Shown piece after piece: positions 23,789 to 47,550 of a stretch of 64,000 nt of DNA. The position numbers and the translations under genes are program-made. The notes below the pieces were generated by a model that was given only the letters and a program-made list of their open reading frames with translations, was not told the DNA's origin and did no database searches. Positions within the stretch are counted from its first letter, which is position 1; every line of letters begins with the position of its first letter. The stretch is from positions 140,956 to 204,955 of the forward strand of contig NZ_CAJQTX010000004.1 in NCBI RefSeq assembly GCF_907163085.1, in the 5' to 3' direction. The stretch comes from Candidatus Accumulibacter sp. ACC003. Lineage in GTDB: Bacteria; Pseudomonadota; Gammaproteobacteria; Burkholderiales; Rhodocyclaceae.

Positions 23789-26482
23789 AACTGACGGCGA
23801 AGCGCAGCAATCCGATTCGGCGAGAGAACCTGAAACGGCTGGGTGCTTCGTATTGGTGGGTCGTGAGCATCGGCGCCGTGTTCACCATGGCTCGTTTCAG
23901 CGAGGCATTTCTCGTTCTACGTGCGCAGCAGAGCGGCATACCGCTGGCCCTGGTGCCGTTGCTCATGGTGGCGATGAATGTCGTCTATGCCGCGTCGGCC
24001 TACCCGTTTGGCAGGCTTTCCGATCGGCTGAGCCACAAGAAGCTGCTGGCACTTGGGATGATCGTCCTGATCGCCGCCGACTTGGTATTGGCCAGCGGCG
24101 TCCACTGGGCTGTCGTGCTTGCCGGTGTCGCCCTCTGGGGCATCCACATGGGCATCACTCAAGGCTTGCTGGCGACGATGGTTGCCGACACCGCTCCGGC
24201 CGACTTGCGCGGCACGGCGTTCGGGTTCTTCAGCCTGGTAAGCGGACTGGCGATGCTGCCGGCCAGCGTGCTGGCGGGGCTGCTGTGGGATCGGTTCGGC
24301 GCGTCATTTACCTTCTATGCAGGCGCGATGTTTTCCGCCCTTGCACTCCTGGGTCTGGCCTGGCAGCCAGCCATGCGAATGCGCAATGCCTAGCGTGCGG
24401 CAATGATCGAAAGACTCTTCGCCTCTATCCTGCCGTCCCTTGAGCACTTCCATTTGCTCGCTTACTGGCTGGCCTTCTTTACCGCCTTGCTCGAAACAGC
24501 ATTCGTGCTTGGTTTGCTACTGCCCGGTTCGACTCTCTTGCTCATGCTTGGCGCCCTGTCGGCCAGCGGCCATCTCGATTTCGGCGATCTGCTGTGGTTT
24601 GCGGTCGCCGGCGCTGTCCTTGGCGACAATTTCAACTACTGGTTGGGCCAACGCTATGGCAACAGGTGGCTGCGTGATGGCGTGTGCTTCCTGACGCCAG
24701 ATCATTTCGGGAAGGCACGCAGCTTCTTCGATCGGCATGGCGCAAAGAGTGTCTTTCTCGGGCGCTTCATCCCGAGCGTCAAGGAAATTGCGCCATTCGT
24801 GGCTGGCACTGTCGGCATGCCGCGCTACACGTTCATGCTCTGGAATGTCCTGGGTGCCATCGGCTGGGGCCTGCAGTGGGTCGGTGGCGGTTACTTGTTT
24901 GGGCAGTCGCTCAATTTGGCGCAGGCGTGGATGTCACGAGCGGGGATGGCGCTCGTCGTCGTCTTGCTGGTCTGGGCGCCGCTGTGGCTCTTGCAGCGCT
25001 TCGCCGTGCGCCATGGCGGAGCGGTATTGCAGGTGGCGGTTTCGCTCGCGCGCTCGATCGAGGCCGGCCTGGCCCGCAATCGCTATCTGCGCCGACTGGC
25101 GCGCCGCCATCCGGATGGCGTCCGTTTTTTCGTCGAGCGTGTCGATCGTGCCCATTTCAAAGGCCTGCCACTGACGCTTCTGGTACTGGCATTTGCCTTC
25201 GCCCTGGCCTTGTTCGCGGGCATTGCCGAGGACGTTGTCAACTCCGACCCAATCGTCGCGCTCGACCATGCCGCTGCCCAGTTGATCGCAGCGTTTCGCA
25301 CGCCCGCGGTCGTCTCCCCGGCGTTGTGGATTACCAGCCTCGGCGAGCCAGCGGTCGTCGGAGCCCTACTCGCGGTGGCCTGCCTGGTGCTCTGGCTGGC
25401 GAACCTGAACTACGCTGTCGCGGGCTTGCTGCTGTCCAGCCTTGGTGCAACGGCGTTCAGCTCGCTGGCCAAACTGGCCTTTCAGCGACCTCGGCCGGTT
25501 GCGGCTCTGTTGCTCGAATCGTCCTGGTCCTTCCCGAGTGGGCACGCCACCGCAGCCGTTGCCGTCTACGGTTTCCTGGGCTATCTCTTGATCCGCGGCA
25601 GCTCGACGTGGAAGACACAGGTGAGGCTATTCTTTGCCACCGGTGCCCTGATCGTGCTGGTCGGCCTGAGCCGCATCGTGCTCGGCGTGCATTATCTGAG
25701 CGATGTCTGGGCGGGCTACCTGATTGGAACTCTTTGGCTGATTGTCGGCATCAGCCTGAGCGAGGTCCTGACTGCCAGCGGCCGCATCAGCTGGCATGCT
25801 CCGAGCGTCCCGTGGCGAAGGACGGCGGCTCGCGGCCTCGCGTTTGTCGCCGCTGTCGGGTGCCTCGCCTATGCGTCTACCCGCAGGCTGCCGGCGGTTG
25901 CGCAGGTGACCGAGTTGAGCATCGAGCTCGATCGCCCGCTCGCCGAGCTGTTGCGCAGCCAGGCGCTCGCCAGCACGCTGACGATGCTTGGCCGGCCCGA
26001 GCAAGCGCTGAGCTTCGCCATCATCGAAGCGAACGCCGATGCCTTGTCCGCCCGCCTGCGTCGGTCGGGATGGCTGGCCGCCGACAAAGCCGATGCGCAG
26101 AACATGCTGCGTCTCGCCCGGCAAGGCCTGGATTACACCACGGCACCGCTGGCACCGGCTTTCTGGAACGGCCAGATGAACGACCTGGCGTTCGAACGGC
26201 CGCTTCAACAGGCAGAGAAGAAAGTGGTGGCGACCGTTCGTGTCTGGACCACGCCTTACCGGATCGGCCAGGATCGTCTATTCGTCGGCGTGGTGCGCGA
26301 ATACGATGGCATTCACTGGGGCGTGTTGCACACGATTTTGCCTGACGTGGATGCGGCGGCTGAAGGTTTCGTCGAGTCGCTCAAGAGCCCTGGACAGCGA
26401 TTAGACGCTTGCCTGCGACCATTGCTCGCGCCGATGGTCGGCAGCTACCTGATGGGCGGCCGTTTCTTCACCCGTGGGCAGT

Positions 26483-28390
26483 CACGGTAAATTTGTTCTC
26501 GTGCCGGGATCAAGGTGATACGTGGCCTGTAGAATTTTTGGTCATGCGCAGGTAGTCGAAGACCAATCGGATGTTGCGGTTGAGGTGGCGCATTTTTTCG
26601 GAAATGCTGGTTTTGCCGTCGGAGAAGTGGTGCAGGATTCCGACGGCAAAGCGGCGCAGGCGTGACATGTTCTCGGGTCCGTAACCAGTCCGAATACGGC
26701 TACGGTCCTCGTCGTAGTTCCAGTCGATGACGTAGTGACAGCGGTTCTCTATCGACCAATGGCCGCGATTGATGGCGAGGATTTGCTGTGGGCTGGCCTG
26801 TTCTGGAGGGCGACTGGTGATCCCGAGAGCGATTTCGTGCGTCCGCTTGCCGCTCTTCTTGTGCAGCACTTCGCGCTCGATCAAGAACACCTGGCCGACA
26901 TACGGGAAGTCGAGATAGGCGTTGAGGGCATTGCTGCACCAAATACGCCGAGTCTCGATCCGACCATGGTCAGGTGGCGAAACCGCCACGAAGTCTGCCC
27001 CCTTCCGATCCTGGAAGAGGAGCGCGATATCGGCTTGCAGTGTTGGCTGATTGCCTTTGACCGTGAAGTGATAGTGCGCCTTGCGCTCCACCAGGTAGGT
27101 CGCCAGCTTGCGCTGTGTCAGTAGCGCGTCGGCGGTGATGTCCTTGCCCTGAATATCGATCGCATCGAGCAGGGGTATGAACATCCCGATTTCATTGGTC
27201 TGCTTGAGCTCGTCCCCGCCATTTACGGGCAAGGTGCCGACTTTTTTTGGGTGTGACACACGCCGGTCTGATGCCCGACCACGCTCATGATGTGTGCTTG
27301 CTGACCGTGCTCGTCATGGGCATTGCGCATGGTCTTGCCGTCGACCGCCAGACTGGGGTCGTCTTGAGCATAGGCCTTGTTCCACTGCTGACACGCTTGA
27401 TCGAGCGCCATGGGATCGACACGGATCAGGACGTCACGAATGATGAACTCGCTGGGTACGCGGTAAACGCCCTTCTCGCGACGACAGCGGAAACGCTCGC
27501 GTGCTTTCGGTGTGAGGTCTTTGGCCCACCCGGCGATGGCTTTGTAGCCCCGCATTCCGCACAAGACCGCCGCCGTGGCGATGGCCAGAACGGCAGGAAG
27601 GGGGTGACGCCTTCCTTGCGCGCGCCGCGGGTCGGCGATGCCGGCAAAGAAATCGGGAAGCGTGCGCATCTGTTCGGCGGTGAGCATCATCCTGGGCGCT
27701 CCTGTGCGATAGCGGGGGTTGAGTATCGAGCGGGAAAGTTGGCCGCGAGCGTCCGCCTGCAAGGGGCGAACAAAGACAACTTTGGGCGACGTCGGGTGGG
27801 CGCTGTAGCCTTCTCGGGTGCGGCGAAAGCCTTGCGTCAGCCCCAGAGGCGTCCAGTTCGCGGCGCGATAGACGGTCCCCTGGAAGCGCGAGGGGTCCAC
27901 AAAGGTCTCCAGCAGTAACAGCGGCTTCCCGAAATGCGCCTGCCAATCCTCGGCGACCCGTCGCTCGCACAGCGAGAGCACCTTGGAGCCGAGATTGGGG
28001 TAATGCCAATCGGGAAGGATCAGAAAGCGACTGTTGTTGGCGACCAGGCCCAAGCGATCGTACTGATGCCGATAGTCCCAGCCGATCCAGCGGTCACGAA
28101 CGCCGCATTTCCAGGCCGCCGCAGAGAAACTCAGCAGGGCCGTCCACTTTTCGCCGTAGGTGGCCACGTACCAAAGCGTGTGCCCGATCTTCGCCAGGTC
28201 GCCCAGGTAGTGATGCTCTGCCATCAACTCCCGATAGCGAGCCTCTTCGCTCTTGCCCACCAAGCGAACACGCAATGCACCAAGAACGCTTTCCATGCGC
28301 CATTTATACGGACTTCCGGCGCAGATGTCCAGGGGGAAGAACTAACTGCTTGATTGCCCGTGCGTTGCCTGAGAGGACAAATCCACCCTG
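26483..28390 (-). mobile_element. ISAs1-family IS with DUF4338 domain, copy A (1908 bp)
   Basis: Imperfect IRs CAGGGTGGATTTGTCCTC / CACGGTAAATTTGTTCTC; 10-bp TSD CGTGGGCAGT (26473-26482, 28391-28400). Confidence 0.95.
26510..28296 (-). CDS. DUF4338-ISAs1 transposase fusion (two ORFs joined by predicted -1 frameshift, about 595 aa)
   Basis: ORF1 27223-28296 (DUF4338, DPR..QGRRH.L..VL, AVDGKT); ORF2 26510-27259 (NEI...PLLD..D, ITADALLTQ, HGRIETR, R.HW.IEN..H...D..Y.ED..R.R); A-AAA-AAG at 27247-27241. Confidence 0.85.
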
Positions 28391-28467
28391 CGTGGGCAGT
28401 TGTGGCTGCTTGACCCGGGCGACCACAGCGACCTCGCATGGCTGTGTGGCCAGCAAGGGCCAGGACC

Positions 28468-28901: not shown

Positions 28902-30809
28902 CACGGTAAATTTGTTCTCGTGCCGGGATCAAGGTGATACGTGGCCTGTAGAATTTTTGGTCATGCGCAGGTAGTCGAAGACCAATCGGATGTTGCGGTT
29001 GAGGTGGCGCATTTTTTCGGAAATGCTGGTTTTGCCGTCGGAGAAGTGGTGCAGGATTCCGACGGCAAAGCGGCGCAGGCGTGACATGTTCTCGGGTCCG
29101 TAACCAGTCCGAATACGGCTACGGTCCTCGTCGTAGTTCCAGTCGATGACGTAGTGACAGCGGTTCTCTATCGACCAATGGCCGCGATTGATGGCGAGGA
29201 TTTGCTGTGGGCTGGCCTGTTCTGGAGGGCGACTGGTGATCCCGAGAGCGATTTCGTGCGTCCGCTTGCCGCTCTTCTTGTGCAGCACTTCGCGCTCGAT
29301 CAAGAACACCTGGCCGACATACGGGAAGTCGAGATAGGCGTTGAGGGCATTGCTGCACCAAATACGCCGAGTCTCGATCCGACCATGGTCAGGTGGCGAA
29401 ACCGCCACGAAGTCTGCCCCCTTCCGATCCTGGAAGAGGAGCGCGATATCGGCTTGCAGTGTTGGCTGATTGCCTTTGACCGTGAAGTGATAGTGCGCCT
29501 TGCGCTCCACCAGGTAGGTCGCCAGCTTGCGCTGTGTCAGTAGCGCGTCGGCGGTGATGTCCTTGCCCTGAATATCGATCGCATCGAGCAGGGGTATGAA
29601 CATCCCGATTTCATTGGTCTGCTTGAGCTCGTCCCCGCCATTTACGGGCAAGGTGCCGACTTTTTTTGGGTGTGACACACGCCGGTCTGATGCCCGACCA
29701 CGCTCATGATGTGTGCTTGCTGACCGTGCTCGTCATGGGCATTGCGCATGGTCTTGCCGTCGACCGCCAGACTGGGGTCGTCTTGAGCATAGGCCTTGTT
29801 CCACTGCTGACACGCTTGATCGAGCGCCATGGGATCGACACGGATCAGGACGTCACGAATGATGAACTCGCTGGGTACGCGGTAAACGCCCTTCTCGCGA
29901 CGACAGCGGAAACGCTCGCGTGCTTTCGGTGTGAGGTCTTTGGCCCACCCGGCGATGGCTTTGTAGCCCCGCATTCCGCACAAGACCGCCGCCGTGGCGA
30001 TGGCCAGAACGGCAGGAAGGGGGTGACGCCTTCCTTGCGCGCGCCGCGGGTCGGCGATGCCGGCAAAGAAATCGGGAAGCGTGCGCATCTGTTCGGCGGT
30101 GAGCATCATCCTGGGCGCTCCTGTGCGATAGCGGGGGTTGAGTATCGAGCGGGAAAGTTGGCCGCGAGCGTCCGCCTGCAAGGGGCGAACAAAGACAACT
30201 TTGGGCGACGTCGGGTGGGCGCTGTAGCCTTCTCGGGTGCGGCGAAAGCCTTGCGTCAGCCCCAGAGGCGTCCAGTTCGCGGCGCGATAGACGGTCCCCT
30301 GGAAGCGCGAGGGGTCCACAAAGGTCTCCAGCAGTAACAGCGGCTTCCCGAAATGCGCCTGCCAATCCTCGGCGACCCGTCGCTCGCACAGCGAGAGCAC
30401 CTTGGAGCCGAGATTGGGGTAATGCCAATCGGGAAGGATCAGAAAGCGACTGTTGTTGGCGACCAGGCCCAAGCGATCGTACTGATGCCGATAGTCCCAG
30501 CCGATCCAGCGGTCACGAACGCCGCATTTCCAGGCCGCCGCAGAGAAACTCAGCAGGGCCGTCCACTTTTCGCCGTAGGTGGCCACGTACCAAAGCGTGT
30601 GCCCGATCTTCGCCAGGTCGCCCAGGTAGTGATGCTCTGCCATCAACTCCCGATAGCGAGCCTCTTCGCTCTTGCCCACCAAGCGAACACGCAATGCACC
30701 AAGAACGCTTTCCATGCGCCATTTATACGGACTTCCGGCGCAGATGTCCAGGGGGAAGAACTAACTGCTTGATTGCCCGTGCGTTGCCTGAGAGGACAAA
30801 TCCACCCTG
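28902..30809 (-). mobile_element. ISAs1-family IS with DUF4338 domain, copy B (1908 bp)
   Basis: Same sequence and ORFs as copy A (28929-29678, 29642-30715); flanks ATCGCTGCCT / ATCGCTGCGT (9 of 10 match). Confidence 0.95.
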
Positions 30810-36978: not shown

Positions 36979-39354
36979 CAGATTTCCTGATCTCGGAGGA
37001 AACCGGGTTGGCACTTCAGACAAGAGTGAAGGTCATTCTTGCCCCGGTTTCCGGATGCGGAAAATCTTGCAGGGTGAGTTCCTCGAGGAGCGCGGCGATA
37101 GCGCGATCATGAGCTGGGCTGGCCATCCGGTGAATTTTGATGGTCAGGGTGTTGGCTAGCGCGTTCGGTTCGATGTCAGCGGAAGAAACGAACAATTCGC
37201 GAATGAGCGCACGTGCGTCGTCCTCCTTCTTCAAGTGGCGGCGCAATAGCGCCACCATGGCGGTCTCGGCCCGGTAGGCGACCATTTTCACGGTATCGCA
37301 GAGCATCTTGTTCAGCGGCGGCAGTTGGGTCGGTCGCTCGGCCTCGGGCAGACTGTCGATCGTCACCTTTCGGGGGCTTGCCTTGCGCGCCGCGCAAAGT
37401 CGCTTGAGCTCCTCCTGAACGGCCTGCAGTGCTTCGACAGACTCGGCGTTTTTCTGGATTTCGCCGCCGTCGTTCAAGGCCGTCCTGGCGATTGCGGCCT
37501 GCAGTTTTCTTTCGCTCTGGCGGGTTTGCCTGACGGCCTTGTCGAGTTCCCGCCAGCGGGGGTTAACGACCTGGTGAGTGCCGGGAAGAGAGTCGTCTCC
37601 GTACTCGATAAGCCCATCAATATCATAATGTTCCATCATGTACGCGAAGTAGTTTTCCTGGCACCAACGGGCGAACATCCGCCCAGCGATGGTGGTGTTT
37701 CCGAGTTGCCGGGCGGTCGTGATCACGGCTGTTTGATGTCCCGTCTGGGTCAGCCGACGAACTTCGCTCACGGCCAGGCTGCCATCGCCTGTGCCGAGTC
37801 GGGTTTCGCGCATGGCGAGTTTCATCCCGGTGCTGCCGCCTGCCGGCAGATGGACTTCCTGTTCCTGAAACACCTCTTCGGACCAGAGGTCCTTGACGTT
37901 CTTGCGGTAGGTCAGTGCGCCGATGCGCTGTTTCCAGAGTCTGCCGAGGAGACTCTGGGTGGCCCCTTCCCGATCGAAGACCATGACAAACCGGTGCAGG
38001 GTCGGGTCGGCGTCCAGTTCGGCCGGCGTCGGCTGTCCCGGGACAATCTCCAGCAGTTGGGGGACGATGTCCTTGAGCAGGGTCTCGGCGAGTCCGTCAT
38101 TGAGCGGCTGCGAAACCACAAAGAACGGGCGACCCAGGGCATCGTTAACCCAGTAGTCGGTGGTGCCCCGCAGGCACAGGCGTTCGCGCGAGACGTAGCG
38201 CTTCGACAGCCTGGCCTGCTCGCCGTGATACACCCGAACATGACCATCGACATACAGGTAACCCGCTTCTTCTGGCTCGCTTTCCATCCAGAGCTTCGCG
38301 AGATCCCGCATCCAGGCTGCCGGGTCACCCGTCTTGGCCAGCAGATGGACCTTTTCCCGCAGGGTGCGGACTTCCGGTACCCGGTCCAGGCCGATGACTT
38401 TGCCGAGTTCTCCGGGCGAGGTTTGTCGCAGATGTTCCGGCCGCTTGATTCGCCCCAGGGCCATGAAGCCGAGGACGAGAAGGATGTGCAAGGCGCTGTA
38501 GAATCCCCGGGGCAGCTTGAGATGGCGATCCAGGCCGGTCAGTAGCCCGTTCGCGCACAAGGCCGGCAAGCCGGCCAACAGCCCCCCCATCGCCACATCG
38601 TGGCTCGCTTCGAAGCGCGTCGTCGCACCGGTCGCCAATCCCAGCGCCGTTTGGATCCGCTCGTCGGCGCGCGTGCAGGCGGTGCCCATCCCCGCGGCGG
38701 CTTCCGCATCCGCCCGGCTGCGCTCACTCTTGGTGCTCGCCGCTTCCAACTCCCCTGCCTCTTGCGGCAAGGCGGCCAACTGCGGCACGCCCTGGCGCCG
38801 GATCGCCTTGCGCAGCGTCGACTCCTGGACGCCCACCTGCCGTGCCACTTCGGCAGGACGCTTTCCCTCGCTCAACAGCCGCGCGCATTCGGCACTCTTG
38901 TCCGGCGTCATGATCCGCGGCCGGCTCGCCGCCGCCGGTCGAAAGAAAGACGATGGCCCGGCTTTGCGGCTTTGTCCCACCCAGTTCATCAGCGTGCGGT
39001 GCGGGATGCACAGCGGTGGCCTTTCCAGTTCGACCGCCTTGACGTGCCCGTTCTCCATCAGGCTGGTCAGAGCGAACCTGCGGCCAGCGTCGTCTCCTAC
39101 GGGGTGCGAGAAGTAATTGTCTCCCCCAACAAAGTAGATCGCTTGGCCATCCTTCTCCAGAATCGCCAACCCTTCTCCCACTTTCTGCGCACCATCCGGA
39201 AACCCTGGAAGCCACGATTGCCTCAACGTCTGCTCCTCCTTGCACTCCTAGCGAAGCTTGGTTTATGCCATAAGAAAATCATGGCCGTCAAAATAAAGTG
39301 CCACGTGCAATTCCGGAATTCTATCTACATTCCCGGCCGGGATCAGGAAATCTG
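36979..39354 (-). mobile_element. 2376-bp IS, copy 2 (transposase 37016-39226)
   Basis: Same 14-bp IR; 5-bp TSD ACCTT (36974-36978, 39355-39359). Confidence 0.95.
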
Positions 39355-43261: not shown

Positions 43262-46200
43262 CACGGTAAATTTGTTCTCGTGCCGGGATCAAGGTGATAC
43301 GTGGCCTGTAGAATTTTTGGTCATGCGCAGGTAGTCGAAGACCAATCGGATGTTGCGGTTGAGGTGGCGCATTTTTTCGGAAATGCTGGTTTTGCCGTCG
43401 GAGAAGTGGTGCAGGATTCCGACGGCAAAGCGGCGCAGGCGTGACATGTTCTCGGGTCCGTAACCAGTCCGAATACGGCTACGGTCCTCGTCGTAGTTCC
43501 AGTCGATGACGTAGTGACAGCGGTTCTCTATCGACCAATGGCCGCGATTGATGGCGAGGATTTGCTGTGGGCTGGCCTGTTCTGGAGGGCGACTGGTGAT
43601 CCCGAGAGCGATTTCGTGCGTCCGCTTGCCGCTCTTCTTGTGCAGCACTTCGCGCTCGATCAAGAACACCTGGCCGACATGCGGGAAGTCGAGATAGGCG
43701 TTGAGGGCATTGCTGCACCAAATACGCCGAGTCTCGATCCGACCATGGTCAGGTGGCGAAACCGCCATGAAGTCTGCCCCCTTCCGATCCTGGAAGAGGA
43801 GCGCGATATCGGCTTGCAGTGTTGGCTGATTGCCTTTGACCGTGAAGTGATAGTGCGCCTTGCGCTCCACCAGGTAGGTCGCCAGCTTGCGCTGTGTCAG
43901 TAGCGCGTCGGCGGTGATGTCCTTGCCCTGAATATCGATCGCATCGAGCAGGGGTATGAACATCCCGATTTCATTGGTCTGCTTGAGCTCGTCCCCGCCA
44001 TTTACGGGCAAGGTGCCGACTTTTTTTGGGTGTGGCACACGCCGGTCTGATGCCCGACCACACTCATGATGTGCGTTTGCTGACCGTGCTCGTCATGGGC
44101 ATTGCGCATGGTCTTGCCGTCGACCGCCAGACTGGGGTCGTCTTGAGCATAGGCCTTGTTCCACTGCTGACACGCTTGGTCGAGTGCCGTGGGATCGACG
44201 CGGATCAGGACGTCACGAATGATGAACTCGCTGGGTACGCGGTAAACGCCCTTCTCGCGACGACAGCGGAAACGCTCGCGTGCTTTCGGTGTGAGGTCTT
44301 TGGCCCACCCGGCGATGGCTTTGTAGCCCTGCATTCCGCACAACGCCGCCGCCGTGGCGATGGCCAGCACGGCCGGCAGGGGATGGCGTCTTCCTTCAGA
44401 TTTCCTGATCTCGGAGGAAACCGGGTTGGCACTTCAGACAAGAGTGAAGGTCATTCTTGCCCCGGTTTCCGGATGCGGAAAATCTTGCAGGGTGAGTTTC
44501 TCGAGGAGCGCGGCGATAGCGCGATCATGAGCTGGGCTGGCCATCCGGTGAATTTTGATGGTCAGGGTGTTGGCTAGCGCGTTCGGTTCGATGTCAGCGG
44601 AAGAAACGAACAATTCGCGAATGAGCGCACGTGCGTCGTCCTCCTTCTTCAAGTGGCGGCGCAATAGCGCCACCATGGCGGTCTCGGCCCGGTAGGCGAC
44701 CATTTTCACGGTATCGCAGAGCATCTTGTTCAGCGGCGGCAGTTGGGTCGGTCGCTCGGCCTCGGGCAGACTGTCGATCGTCACCTTTCGGGGGCTTGCC
44801 TTGCGCGCCGCGCAAAGTCGCTTGAGCTCCTCCTGAACGGCCTGCAGTGCTTCGACAGACTCGGCGTTTTTCTGGATTTCGCCGCCGTCGTTCAAGGCCG
44901 TCCTGGCGATTGCGGCCTGCAGTTTTCTTTCGCTCTGGCGGGTTTGCCTGACGGCCTTGTCGAGTTCCCGCCAGCGGGGGTTAACGACCTGGTGAGTGCC
45001 GGGAAGAGATTCGTCTCCGTACTCGATAAGCCCATCAATATCATAATGTTCCATCATGTACGCGAAGTAGTTTTCCTGGCACCAACGGGCGAACATCCGC
45101 CCAGCGATGGTGGTGTTTCCGAGTTGCCGGGCGGTCGTGATCACGGCTGTTTGATGTCCCGTCTGGGTCAGCCGACGAACTTCGCTCACGGCCAGGCTGC
45201 CATCGCCTGTGCCGAGTCGGGTTTCGCGCATGGCGAGTTTCATCCCGGTGCTGCCGCCTGCCGGCAGATGGACTTCCTGTTCCTGAAACACCTCTTCGGA
45301 CCAGAGGTCCTTGACGTTCTTGCGGTAGGTCAGTGCGCCGATGCGCTGTTTCCAGAGTCTGCCGAGGAGACTCTGGGTGGCCCCTTCCCGATCGAAGACC
45401 ATGACAAACCGGTGCAGGGTCGGGTCGGCGTCCAGTTCGGCCGGCGTCGGCTGTCCCGGGACAATCTCCAGCAGTTGGGGGACGATGTCCTTGAGCAGGG
45501 TCTCGGCGAGTCCGTCATTGAGCGGCTGCGAAACCACAAAGAACGGGCGACCCAGGGCATCGTTAACCCAGTAGTCGGTGGTGCCCCGCAGGCACAGGCG
45601 TTCGCGCGAGACGTAGCGCTTCGACAGCCTGGCCTGCTCGCCGTGATACACCCGAACATGACCATCGACATACAGGTAACCCGCTTCTTCTGGCTCGCTT
45701 TCCATCCAGAGCTTCGCGAGATCCCGCATCCAGGCTGCCGGGTCACCCGTCTTGGCCAGCAGATGGACCTTTTCCCGCAGGGTGCGGACTTCCGGTACCC
45801 GGTCCAGGCCGATGACTTTGCCGAGTTCTCCGGGCGAGGTTTGTCGCAGATGTTCCGGCCGCTTGATTCGCCCCAGGGCCATGAAGCCGAGGACGAGAAG
45901 GATGTGCAAGGCGCTGTAGAATCCCCGGGGCAGCTTGAGATGGCGATCCAGGCCGGTCAGTAGCCCGTTCGCGCACAAGGCCGGCAAGCCGGCCAACAGC
46001 CCCCCCATCGCCACATCGTGGCTCGCTTCGAAGCGCGTCGTCGCACCGGTCGCCAATCCCAGCGCCGTTTGGATCCGCTCGTCGGCGCGCGTGCAGGCGG
46101 TGCCCATCCCCGCGGCGGCTTCCGCATCCGCCCGGCTGCGCTCACTCTTGGTGCTCGCCGCTTCCAATTCCCCTGCCTCTTGCGGCAAGGCGGCCAACTG

Positions 46201-47550
46201 CGGCACGCCCTGGCGCCGGATCGCCTTGCGCAGCGTCGACTCCTGGACGCCCACCTGCCGTGCCACTTCGGCAGGACGCTTTCCCTCGCTCAACAGCCGC
46301 GCGCATTCGGCACTCTTGTCCGGCGTCATGATCCGCGGCCGGCTCGCCGCCGCCGGTCGAAAGAAAGACGATGGCCCGGCTTTGCGGCTTTGTCCCACCC
46401 AGTTCATCAGCGTGCGGTGCGGGATGCACAGCGGTGGCCTTTCCAGTTCGACCGCCTTGACGTGCCCGTTCTCCATCAGGCTGGTCAGAGCGAACCTGCG
46501 GCCAGCGTCGTCTCCTACGGGGTGCGAGAAGTAATTGTCTCCCCCAACAAAGTAGATCGCTTGGCCATCCTTCTCCAGAATCGCCAACCCTTCTCCCACT
46601 TTCTGCGCACCATCCGGAAACCCTGGAAGCCACGATTGCCTCAACGTCTGCTCCTCCTTGCACTCCTAGCGAAGCTTGGTTTATGCCATAAGAAAATCAT
46701 GGCCGTCAAAATAAAGTGCCACGTGCAATTCCGGAATTCTACCTACATTCCCGGCCGGGATCAGGAAATCTGTCCTTGCGCGCGCCGCGGGTCGGCGATG
46801 CCGGTAAAGAAATCGGGAAGCGTGCGCATCTGTTCGGCGGTGAGCATCATCCTGGGCGCTCCTGTGCGATAGCGGGGGTTGAGTATCGAGCGGGAAAGTT
46901 GGCCGCGAGCGTCCGCCTGCAAGGGGCGAACAAAGACAACTTTGGGCGACGTCGGGTGGGCGCTGTAGCCTTCTCGGGTGCGGCGAAAGCCTTGCGTCAG
47001 CCCCAGAGGCGTCCAGTTCGCGGCGCGATAGACGGTCCCCTGGAAGCGCGAGGGGTCCACAAAGGTCTCCAGCAGTAACAGCGGCTTCCCGAAATGCGCC
47101 TGCCAATCCTCGGCGACCCGTCGCTCGCACAGCGAGAGCACCTTGGAGCCGAGATTGGGGTAATGCCAATCGGGAAGGATCAGAAAGCGACTGTTGTTGG
47201 CGACCAGGCCCAAGCGATCGTACTGATGCCGATAGTCCCAGCCGATCCAGCGGTCACGAACGCCGCATTTCCAGGCCGCCGCAGAGAAACTCAGCAGGGC
47301 CGTCCACTTTTCGCCGTAGGTGGCCACGTACCAAAGCGTGTGCCCGATCTTCGCAAGGTCGCCCAGGTAGTGATGCTCTGCCATCAACTCCCGATAGCGA
47401 GCCTCTTCGCTCTTGCCCACCAAGCGAACACGCAATGCACCAAGAACGCTTTCCATGCGCCATTTATACGGACTTCCGGCGCAGATGTCCAGGGGGAAGA
47501 ACTAACTGCTTGATTGCCCGTGCGTTGCCTGAGAGGACAAATCCACCCTG
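43262..47550 (-). mobile_element. ISAs1-DUF4338 IS, copy C, interrupted by the 2376-bp IS
   Basis: 10-bp TSD AGCCATTCGC (43252-43261, 47551-47560); 4289 bp = 1908 + 2376 + 5. Confidence 0.95.
44397..46772 (-). mobile_element. 2376-bp IS, copy 3, nested in ISAs1 copy C (transposase 44434-46644)
   Basis: Same IR; 5-bp TSD TCCTT (44392-44396, 46773-46777). Confidence 0.95.

Follow-up and report, generated by a model that had tools for sequence, protein, structure and literature searches.

Insertion sequence with a transposase in two overlapping frames

The window analyzed here is the whole 64,000-nucleotide (nt) stretch of Candidatus Accumulibacter sp. ACC003 examined in this work (contig NZ_CAJQTX010000004.1, positions 140,956 to 204,955), and positions given without a contig label refer to it. 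On its minus strand lies copy A of a DruA/DUF4338-ISAs1-type insertion sequence (IS), whose transposase is encoded by two overlapping open reading frames (ORFs) that meet at a slippery heptamer, A_AAA_AAG. Copy A comprises the following features, given in base pairs (bp) and amino acids (aa).

26483..28390, minus strand: IS copy A, 1908 bp, DruA/DUF4338-ISAs1-type insertion sequence (self-BLAST; 23 full-length genomic copies)
28371..28390, minus strand: left terminal inverted repeat, reading CAGGGTGGATTTGTCCTCTC in element orientation (from a comparison of the ends of every copy)
26483..26503, minus strand: right terminal inverted repeat (same comparison)
26473..26482: 10-bp target-site duplication of copy A, first member, actgcccacg on the element strand (both sides match)
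28391..28400: 10-bp target-site duplication of copy A, partner, same 10 bp
27223..28296, minus strand: ORF1, 357 aa, ending QKK-SAPCP-stop
27241..27247, minus strand: slippery heptamer A_AAA_AAG in ORF1 phase, forming A7G with the additional A at 27248
26510..27241, minus strand: ORF2, the -1-frame part, with its stop codon at 26512..26510

At the site, the minus strand reads CAC ACC CAA AAA AAG TCG GCA CCT TGC CCG TAA. ORF1 stops five codons beyond A_AAA_AAG, with the tail SAPCP, and the -1 frame reads KKVGTLPVNGG... and is open as far as 26510. An X_XXY_YYZ heptamer in the phase of the upstream ORF, together with a downstream ORF overlapping it in the -1 frame, is the arrangement by which IS1/IS3-type sites are recognized. 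The first-pass annotation of this DNA had proposed such a site within an ISAs1 transposase, with products of 357 and 595 aa; the minus-strand sequence and the reading frames bear out the site, and conceptual translation of ORF1 and of the ORF1-ORF2 fusion returns both sizes.

The site is kept in the two other copies in the window.

28902..30809, minus strand: IS copy B, with A7G at 29660-29667 (self-BLAST)
43262..44396, minus strand: 3' part of IS copy C (ORF2 and the end of ORF1), with A7G at 44020-44027
46773..47550, minus strand: 5' part of IS copy C, with another IS of ~2.37 kilobases (kb) between it and the 3' part

By self-BLAST, copy B is 100% identical to copy A, and copy C, which is split by another IS, is 98.3% identical. 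Since these alignments are free of gaps, the A7G sites can be placed at 29660-29667 and 44020-44027, where they had been reported, and the slip site of copy C is intact within a diverged patch. The terminal inverted repeats are imperfect, ~18-20 bp long, and common to all genomic copies.

The two frames share one catalytic domain

Pfam places DruA/DUF4338 at residues 8-157 of ORF1 and DDE_Tnp_1_assoc at residues 215-305, and DDE_Tnp_1 in ORF2. The curated NCBIfam model of ISAs1 transposases, NF033564 (314 positions, cutoff of 70 bits), is cut in two, its positions 1-115 falling on ORF1 residues 236-351 and its positions 119-314 on ORF2. ORF2 alone scores 135.7 bits and ORF1 50.8 bits, while for the unsplit relative P0128 (601 aa) the score is 169 bits, with positions 2-313 covered. 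The earlier description of ORF1 as dominated by DUF4338 is right as to the presence of that domain but overlooks that ORF1 also holds DDE_Tnp_1_assoc, the first ~115 of the 314 model positions and the first Asp.

The latter lies in D319-G320-K321 (AVDGKT), which is invariant in the alignment of ORF1 homologues; the motifs ITADAL and HWSIEN are present in ORF2, and unsplit relatives likewise show no variation in the D-G-K and D-A columns. Following the conserved motifs of the family (DGK ... ADA ... HWxIEN), we take D319 of DGK to be the first Asp of the catalytic triad, the Asp of ITADAL to be the second, and HWSIEN to hold the Glu. Because the first Asp is in ORF1 and the second Asp and the Glu are in ORF2, only the fusion holds a complete D-D-E triad, and the 595-aa protein would thus be the transposase. 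In a structure model of P0128 (mean predicted local distance difference test score, pLDDT, of 80), the homologous Q-K-K is located where strand 3 of the RNase-H-like core ends; helix 1 and the strand bearing the second Asp come after it. Judged by this model, the slip site is within the catalytic domain, after the first Asp, and not between domains. Moreover, many relatives whose identity is 53% or lower have one ORF of 585-606 aa, with which the fusion aligns unbroken across the junction (...Q-K-x-V-x...NEI...ADAL).

As for the N-terminal domain, the Pfam Mom family is also matched by 12 of 20 ORF1 homologues, and DUF4338 has been read as a GNAT-like domain (PMC10853773), both of which support an acetyltransferase-like fold. 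A search of PDB sequences with the ORF1 profile gave no match.

Conservation of the slip site among homologues

A scan of species-representative genomes returned at least 575 related stretches, of which the best 80 loci (61-96% identity) were examined. By record title, these loci belong to Betaproteobacteria, Gammaproteobacteria, Desulfobacterota, Acidobacteriota, Nitrospira, Gemmatimonadota and others, an assignment subject to the binning of metagenome-assembled genomes. A search of a plasmid collection yielded just short, distant ISAs1 matches. Among the 77 of the best 80 loci with both ORF1 and ORF2 parts, ORF2 is in the -1 frame at 73, and the layout recurs in relatives down to 43% identity. 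The conservation of A7G that the first-pass annotation had asked to see in homologous elements is thus present. The top 120 ORF1 protein homologues (69-97% identity) agree with this picture, nearly all being 355-357 aa long and ending in ...TQKK plus ~5 variable residues.

C-A7-G shows 100% conservation across 60 distinct sequences, and this extends to the wobble bases of CAA, AAA and AAG. Since neighboring wobble positions vary by 30-60%, the invariance of the run is far beyond chance. Variability peaks at frame-0 third positions upstream of the site and at frame -1 third positions downstream of it; therefore, purifying selection passes from one frame to the other precisely at the site. Of the 60 sequences, 46 have the 0-frame stop five codons past AAG and 8 have it directly after AAG, a conservation that would fit selection for an ORF1 tail of defined, short length. 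The wobble base of GTA is retained in 83% of the sequences despite the G+C-rich host. In one homologue, the closest upstream stop in the -1 frame is just three codons off, and because of it the stretch open in both frames in all homologues shrinks to the 9 nt ending at AAG.

The length of the run does vary among relatives: A6G occurs in L124-L126, and A8G, A8T (L049), A10G (L128) and A9C (L130) were also found. The contexts are CCA AAA AAG for A6G, GAA AAA AAA AAG for A10G and GGC AAA AAA AAA C for A9C. A6G is seen on two independent contigs with intact ORF2 and in a 46%-identical relative. All of these variants, down to 43% identity, keep an in-phase X_XXY_YYZ heptamer and the need for a -1 shift.

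Seven loci were considered as alternative architectures and set aside as decayed copies. The heptamer is changed to CAAAAAGAG at L047, and a 1-nt deletion has produced A6G at L105. A7G is kept at L039 and L092, where the ORF2 match begins only after ~70 residues and in a different frame; a secondary indel would be the simplest explanation. ORF2 is absent at L079, L083 and L090.

A reading without recoding would have ORF1 and ORF2 made as separate polypeptides, the second by reinitiation or from an internal start, and assembling as a split transposase. Copy A does have an in-frame GTG upstream in ORF2, at 27259, and gene callers annotate two genes in relatives; neither the GTG nor its context is conserved in homologues, and no Shine-Dalgarno-like motif is present. 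Such a transposase would be split at the end of strand 3 of its RNase-H-like core, between the first and second Asp of the P0128 model; single-chain relatives align straight across the junction, and the absolute nucleotide conservation of the run would be left unexplained. We regard this reading as very improbable. Programmed recoding of some kind at the site is, in our view, highly probable.

Genomic copies and recent transposition

The host genome (5.39 Mb, 13 contigs, 63.5% G+C) holds 23 full copies of the element at 98.4-100% identity, plus fragments, and a distinct 10-bp target duplication surrounds nearly every one of the 23. A7G is present in 22 copies, and one copy (C5:711551-713457) has A6G. 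The latter was considered as a fused form and rejected, as it enters the third frame and stops soon after. No fused copy is found among the 23 full genomic copies. Since the split copies have their own target duplications and none is fused, they have transposed recently; the split gene must therefore supply the transposase. Going by these sequence features, the element is an active insertion sequence.

The same data bear on the idea of an inactivating frameshift, or of a homopolymer error of assembly, in a decaying element. In its favor are the one genomic copy with A6G in the wrong frame and the few decayed loci, altered at the run in L047 and L105 and off-frame further downstream in ORF2 in L039 and L092. 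The same state is shared by 22 of the 23 genomic copies and 73 of the 77 foreign loci, the target duplications are fresh and distinct, and purifying selection persists in the -1 frame past the site. Contigs from one DNA run (possibly of the source sample), assembled independently, and from two RNA-library runs have A7 without an indel, although rare species are invisible in contigs; one site-spanning contig is a 95%-identical variant. The idea must be counted as already refuted by the conservation data. A homopolymer read error and homologues mostly in one continuous frame were the two outcomes named beforehand as fatal to the site; the former conflicts with the DNA and RNA-library contigs, and the latter is contradicted by the finding of an in-frame A9 in only one close relative, P0128.

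Two arrangements of the copies were observed alongside. At C5:159399-163224, two copies of the IS lie head to tail with exactly the 10-bp target duplication (cttgcccagg) between them and the same 10 bp flanking the pair, making an IS-target duplication-IS tandem dimer. The copies at C4:257665-259572 and C4:278561-280469 have identical flanks and target duplication, and this pair reflects duplication of a segment of about 21 kb, or a duplicate created by the assembly, rather than two insertions. Within the window, copies A and B have the same orientation, are 511 bp apart and differ in their target duplications, and are thus independent insertions.

Unsplit relatives and a second split clade

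In a quick maximum-likelihood tree (midpoint rooted, site columns included), the site-bearing proteins form one clade with a Shimodaira-Hasegawa-like approximate likelihood ratio test (SH-aLRT) value of 99. P0128 is its only unsplit member and is nested inside it. The corresponding DNA (L110:2520-2560) reads CAA AAA AAA ACC, an in-frame C-A9-C at the homologous spot. This A9 run should slip in transcription, and truncated products might result; the alternative is an assembly error.

Another clade of DruA-ISAs1 proteins, including P0151, P0158, P0170, P0189 and P0203, among others, ends at ~440-460 aa with ...F(S/P)PS. On the metagenome contig that encodes P0189 (L131:1690-1760), the DNA reads GCT TTT CCC CCC TCA, a T4C7 tract, after which the rest of the transposase (..KGHGRIEERRIW..) goes on in the +1 frame. 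This tract is a second, different candidate recoding site in the family and has more the look of a polymerase-slippage site.

Ribosome or polymerase

The frame could be changed by the ribosome or by RNA polymerase. In the latter case, the polymerase would sometimes add one A to A7, and the A8 mRNA would encode the same 595-aa fusion, alone or along with ribosomal frameshifting. The site is a homopolymer tract, some relatives have A8-A10, a single-ORF relative has A9 at the same spot, and in another clade of the family the split falls at a slippage-like T4C7 tract. The product of either process would be identical, and no ribosomal stimulator is conserved.

Several observations weigh against a ribosomal mechanism or fail to distinguish it from slippage. 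RNAalifold predicted zero pairs in 56 sequences from -7 to +62. A 6-bp hairpin, TGCCCG-TAG-CGGGCA, was considered as a candidate stimulator and rejected: it pairs in 68% of cells versus 66.5% of shuffled ones, it shows no covariation beyond shuffles, and its arms are Leu-Pro and Gly codons. The segment from +4 to +44 has no excess stability by minimum free energy over control windows in the same elements (median percentile, 0.40), and no Shine-Dalgarno-like motif was found 4-20 nt upstream in the 60 sequences. Insertion of one A by RNA polymerase would yield an identical Q-K-K-V-G junction, and the A9-A10 runs of some relatives would be prone to polymerase slippage. Finally, the conservation of the G cannot discriminate between mechanisms, because it is the first base of a conserved Val codon. 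In copy A, a 7-bp hairpin that includes two G-U pairs is possible 6 nt past the site, but it is not conserved in homologues. Folding of the downstream 50 nt, which the first-pass annotation had suggested, thus gave it no support, as the 50-60 nt after the site are without a conserved stimulatory fold.

On the other side, a whole-genome ARAGORN scan of the host found one tRNA-Lys gene, with anticodon UUU, and no tRNA-Lys(CUU) gene. The shiftiness of A_AAA_AAG has been linked to having just one tRNA-Lys, whose pairing with AAG is weak (PMC5009743), and a sole tRNA-Lys(UUU) is the condition that makes this heptamer most shift-prone (PMC5009743; PMC4066793); Thermus has two Lys tRNAs and uses polymerase slippage instead (PMC5009743). 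BLAST searches of five other host genomes with the host's own tRNA-Lys gene returned only UUU genes in four of them, a search too insensitive to prove the absence of CUU. Run length varies from A6 to A10 while the phase is kept; a transcriptional-slippage site would be recognized by a long homopolymer (~8-9 or more) conserved in length but not in phase, and by heterogeneous run lengths in RNA. A6 is poor for polymerase slippage and still makes a perfect heptamer, and the arrangement is kept with only A6 (CCA AAA AAG) on two independent contigs; phase matters to ribosomes and not to polymerase. The RNA-library contigs also show A7 without an indel, though contigs hide minor species. Because the heptamer phase is always kept and the run length is not, because A6G variants exist and because the sole tRNA-Lys is UUU, the ribosome is favored. 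Polymerase slippage, alone or in combination, is therefore conceivable but doubtful, and we infer that ribosomal -1 frameshifting on A_AAA_AAG probably makes the 595-aa transposase.

In the ribosomal mechanism that we propose, default translation would give the 357-aa ORF1 protein, made up of the GNAT/Mom-like DruA domain, the helical DDE_Tnp_1_assoc and core strands 1-3 with the first Asp. A minority of ribosomes would slip one base back on A_AAA_AAG, with the P-site and A-site tRNA-Lys(UUU) pair re-pairing from AAA-AAG to AAA-AAA, and would go on in the -1 frame, producing the 595-aa protein Q-K-K-V-G-T-L-P-V.... In E. coli, heptamers that lack stimulators exceed a background of about 0.05% by a factor of only 2-10 (PMC4066793); since no stimulator is conserved here, a low fusion yield like that of IS1 is expected. 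The shift is probably inefficient, of the order of 1% or less, which would keep the transposase scarce. At the IS ends, the abundant ORF1 protein would probably serve as a regulator or a competitor. If it behaves like IS1 InsA and IS3 OrfA, it may bind the ends and restrain transposition, with the rare fusion as the transposase. The site would then set the ratio of accessory domain to transposase.

We also considered that the poly-A tract does double duty, as a low-ratio ribosomal slip site and as a contingency tract that toggles lineages between split and fused states, with an ORF1 product that is more than a DNA-binding repressor, namely an enzyme-like protein of Mom/GNAT fold whose core stub (strands 1-3 and the first Asp) could poison transposase assemblies or whose domain could modify IS-end DNA. 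The A6 of one genomic copy, the in-frame A9 of the nested P0128 and the A8-A10 of other relatives are hints of a contingency tract. We think this scheme unlikely; if true, a double-duty tract and an enzyme-like ORF1 would constitute a control of transposition without precedent in IS1 or IS3.

Comparison with known systems

The arrangement is reminiscent of IS1 (insA/insA-B', A_AAA_AAC), in which a -1 slip on an A-rich heptamer joins a short upstream product to the catalytic part, the shift is of low efficiency, the upstream product is the default protein and no RNA stimulator is established (PMC4066793). IS1 belongs to another transposase family, and its site lies between the DNA-binding and catalytic parts, whereas the present one is inside the catalytic core; moreover, ORF1 here is 357 aa long and has an enzyme-like GNAT/Mom-like domain. 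Members of the IS3 family (IS911, IS150 and IS3) share the identical A_AAA_AAG and the same layout of ORFs overlapping in -1, and their fusion would likewise be the transposase, as the review PMC5009743 suggests. They differ in transposase family and in the position of the site within the protein. Typically, they also rely on a hairpin or pseudoknot 5-9 nt beyond the site, in many cases together with a Shine-Dalgarno-like motif before it; neither is conserved here.

The same A_AAA_AAG serves E. coli dnaX (gamma/tau), which also depends on a sole tRNA-Lys(UUU), as found in this host; dnaX has strong 5' and 3' stimulators and a shift of about 50%, and its shifted product is the shorter one, while here it is the longer. 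In a Roseiflexus IS630-family element and in Thermus dnaX, a homopolymer likewise joins two frames of one gene, but there the tracts are longer or composite (A9, T5C5) and the polymerase realigns, whereas here an in-phase heptamer is conserved and A6 variants exist.

Canonical ISAs1 members, in the ISfinder description, are 1.2-1.5 kb long and have one uninterrupted ORF of about 300-380 aa. The present element resembles ISAs1 and the E. coli H-repeat type in its NF033564 match, its short imperfect inverted repeats and its 10-bp target duplication, within the 8-10 bp typical of the family; it differs in being 1908 bp long, in its two frames and in an extra ~200-aa N-terminal DruA/GNAT-like domain. 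Because of this size, the two frames and the extra domain, it represents a distinct ISAs1 subgroup and not a canonical member.

Three ORF1 homologues (P0047, P0050 and P0087) bear the public name 'Druantia anti-phage system protein DruA'. The possibility that ORF1 is a Druantia DruA was examined and rejected, since ORF1 lies inside a 23-copy IS with inverted repeats and target duplications and is frameshift-fused to a DDE transposase. Druantia DruA is a stand-alone gene in an operon with the DruE helicase, and only the domain PF14236 is common to it and ORF1. The DruA naming of ORF1 homologues is thus likely a systematic misannotation. Hundreds to thousands of ORF1 homologues are labeled 'DUF4338 domain-containing protein' or DruA, with their partners labeled as separate or broken transposase genes; such pairs would be the two halves of one recoded transposase, which bears on counts of defense systems and pseudogenes.

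The full-text literature searched, a search that left ISfinder aside, contains no description of recoding in the ISAs1 family. Neither the GeneTack survey nor the heptamer survey with its supplements includes ISAs1, and the 2016 recoding review lists only IS1, IS3, IS5 and IS630 as frameshifting IS families (PMC5009743). What we describe is therefore a classical mechanism in a transposase family in which the searched literature does not describe it, and in an unusual place, inside the catalytic core. If the proposal is true, a widespread DruA/GNAT-domain ISAs1 subgroup joins the list of frameshifting IS families. Being naturally active, present in 23 copies and free of stimulators, the element would offer a test system for how transposition is controlled by a bare A_AAA_AAG combined with an enzyme-like upstream product.

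Surroundings of the copies and other poly-A runs

Copies A and B lie directly downstream of a gene for a 695-aa VTT/PAP2/LssY_C membrane protein (24403-26490). The IS that interrupts copy C, at 44397-46772, is ~2.37 kb long, encodes a 736-aa protein (Pfam Transposase_29 and HTH_23) and has a 5-bp duplication; a second copy of this Transposase_29 IS is found at about 36979-39350.

Runs of A8 occur in other multicopy contexts of the genome, GGGCT-A8-CATTTCGCC at at least nine places and CTGGCT(C/G)-A8-GTCTGG at several (for example, C1:34071, C1:198503, C2:528490 and C4:404992). In this IS-rich genome, they probably serve other IS families as slip sites.

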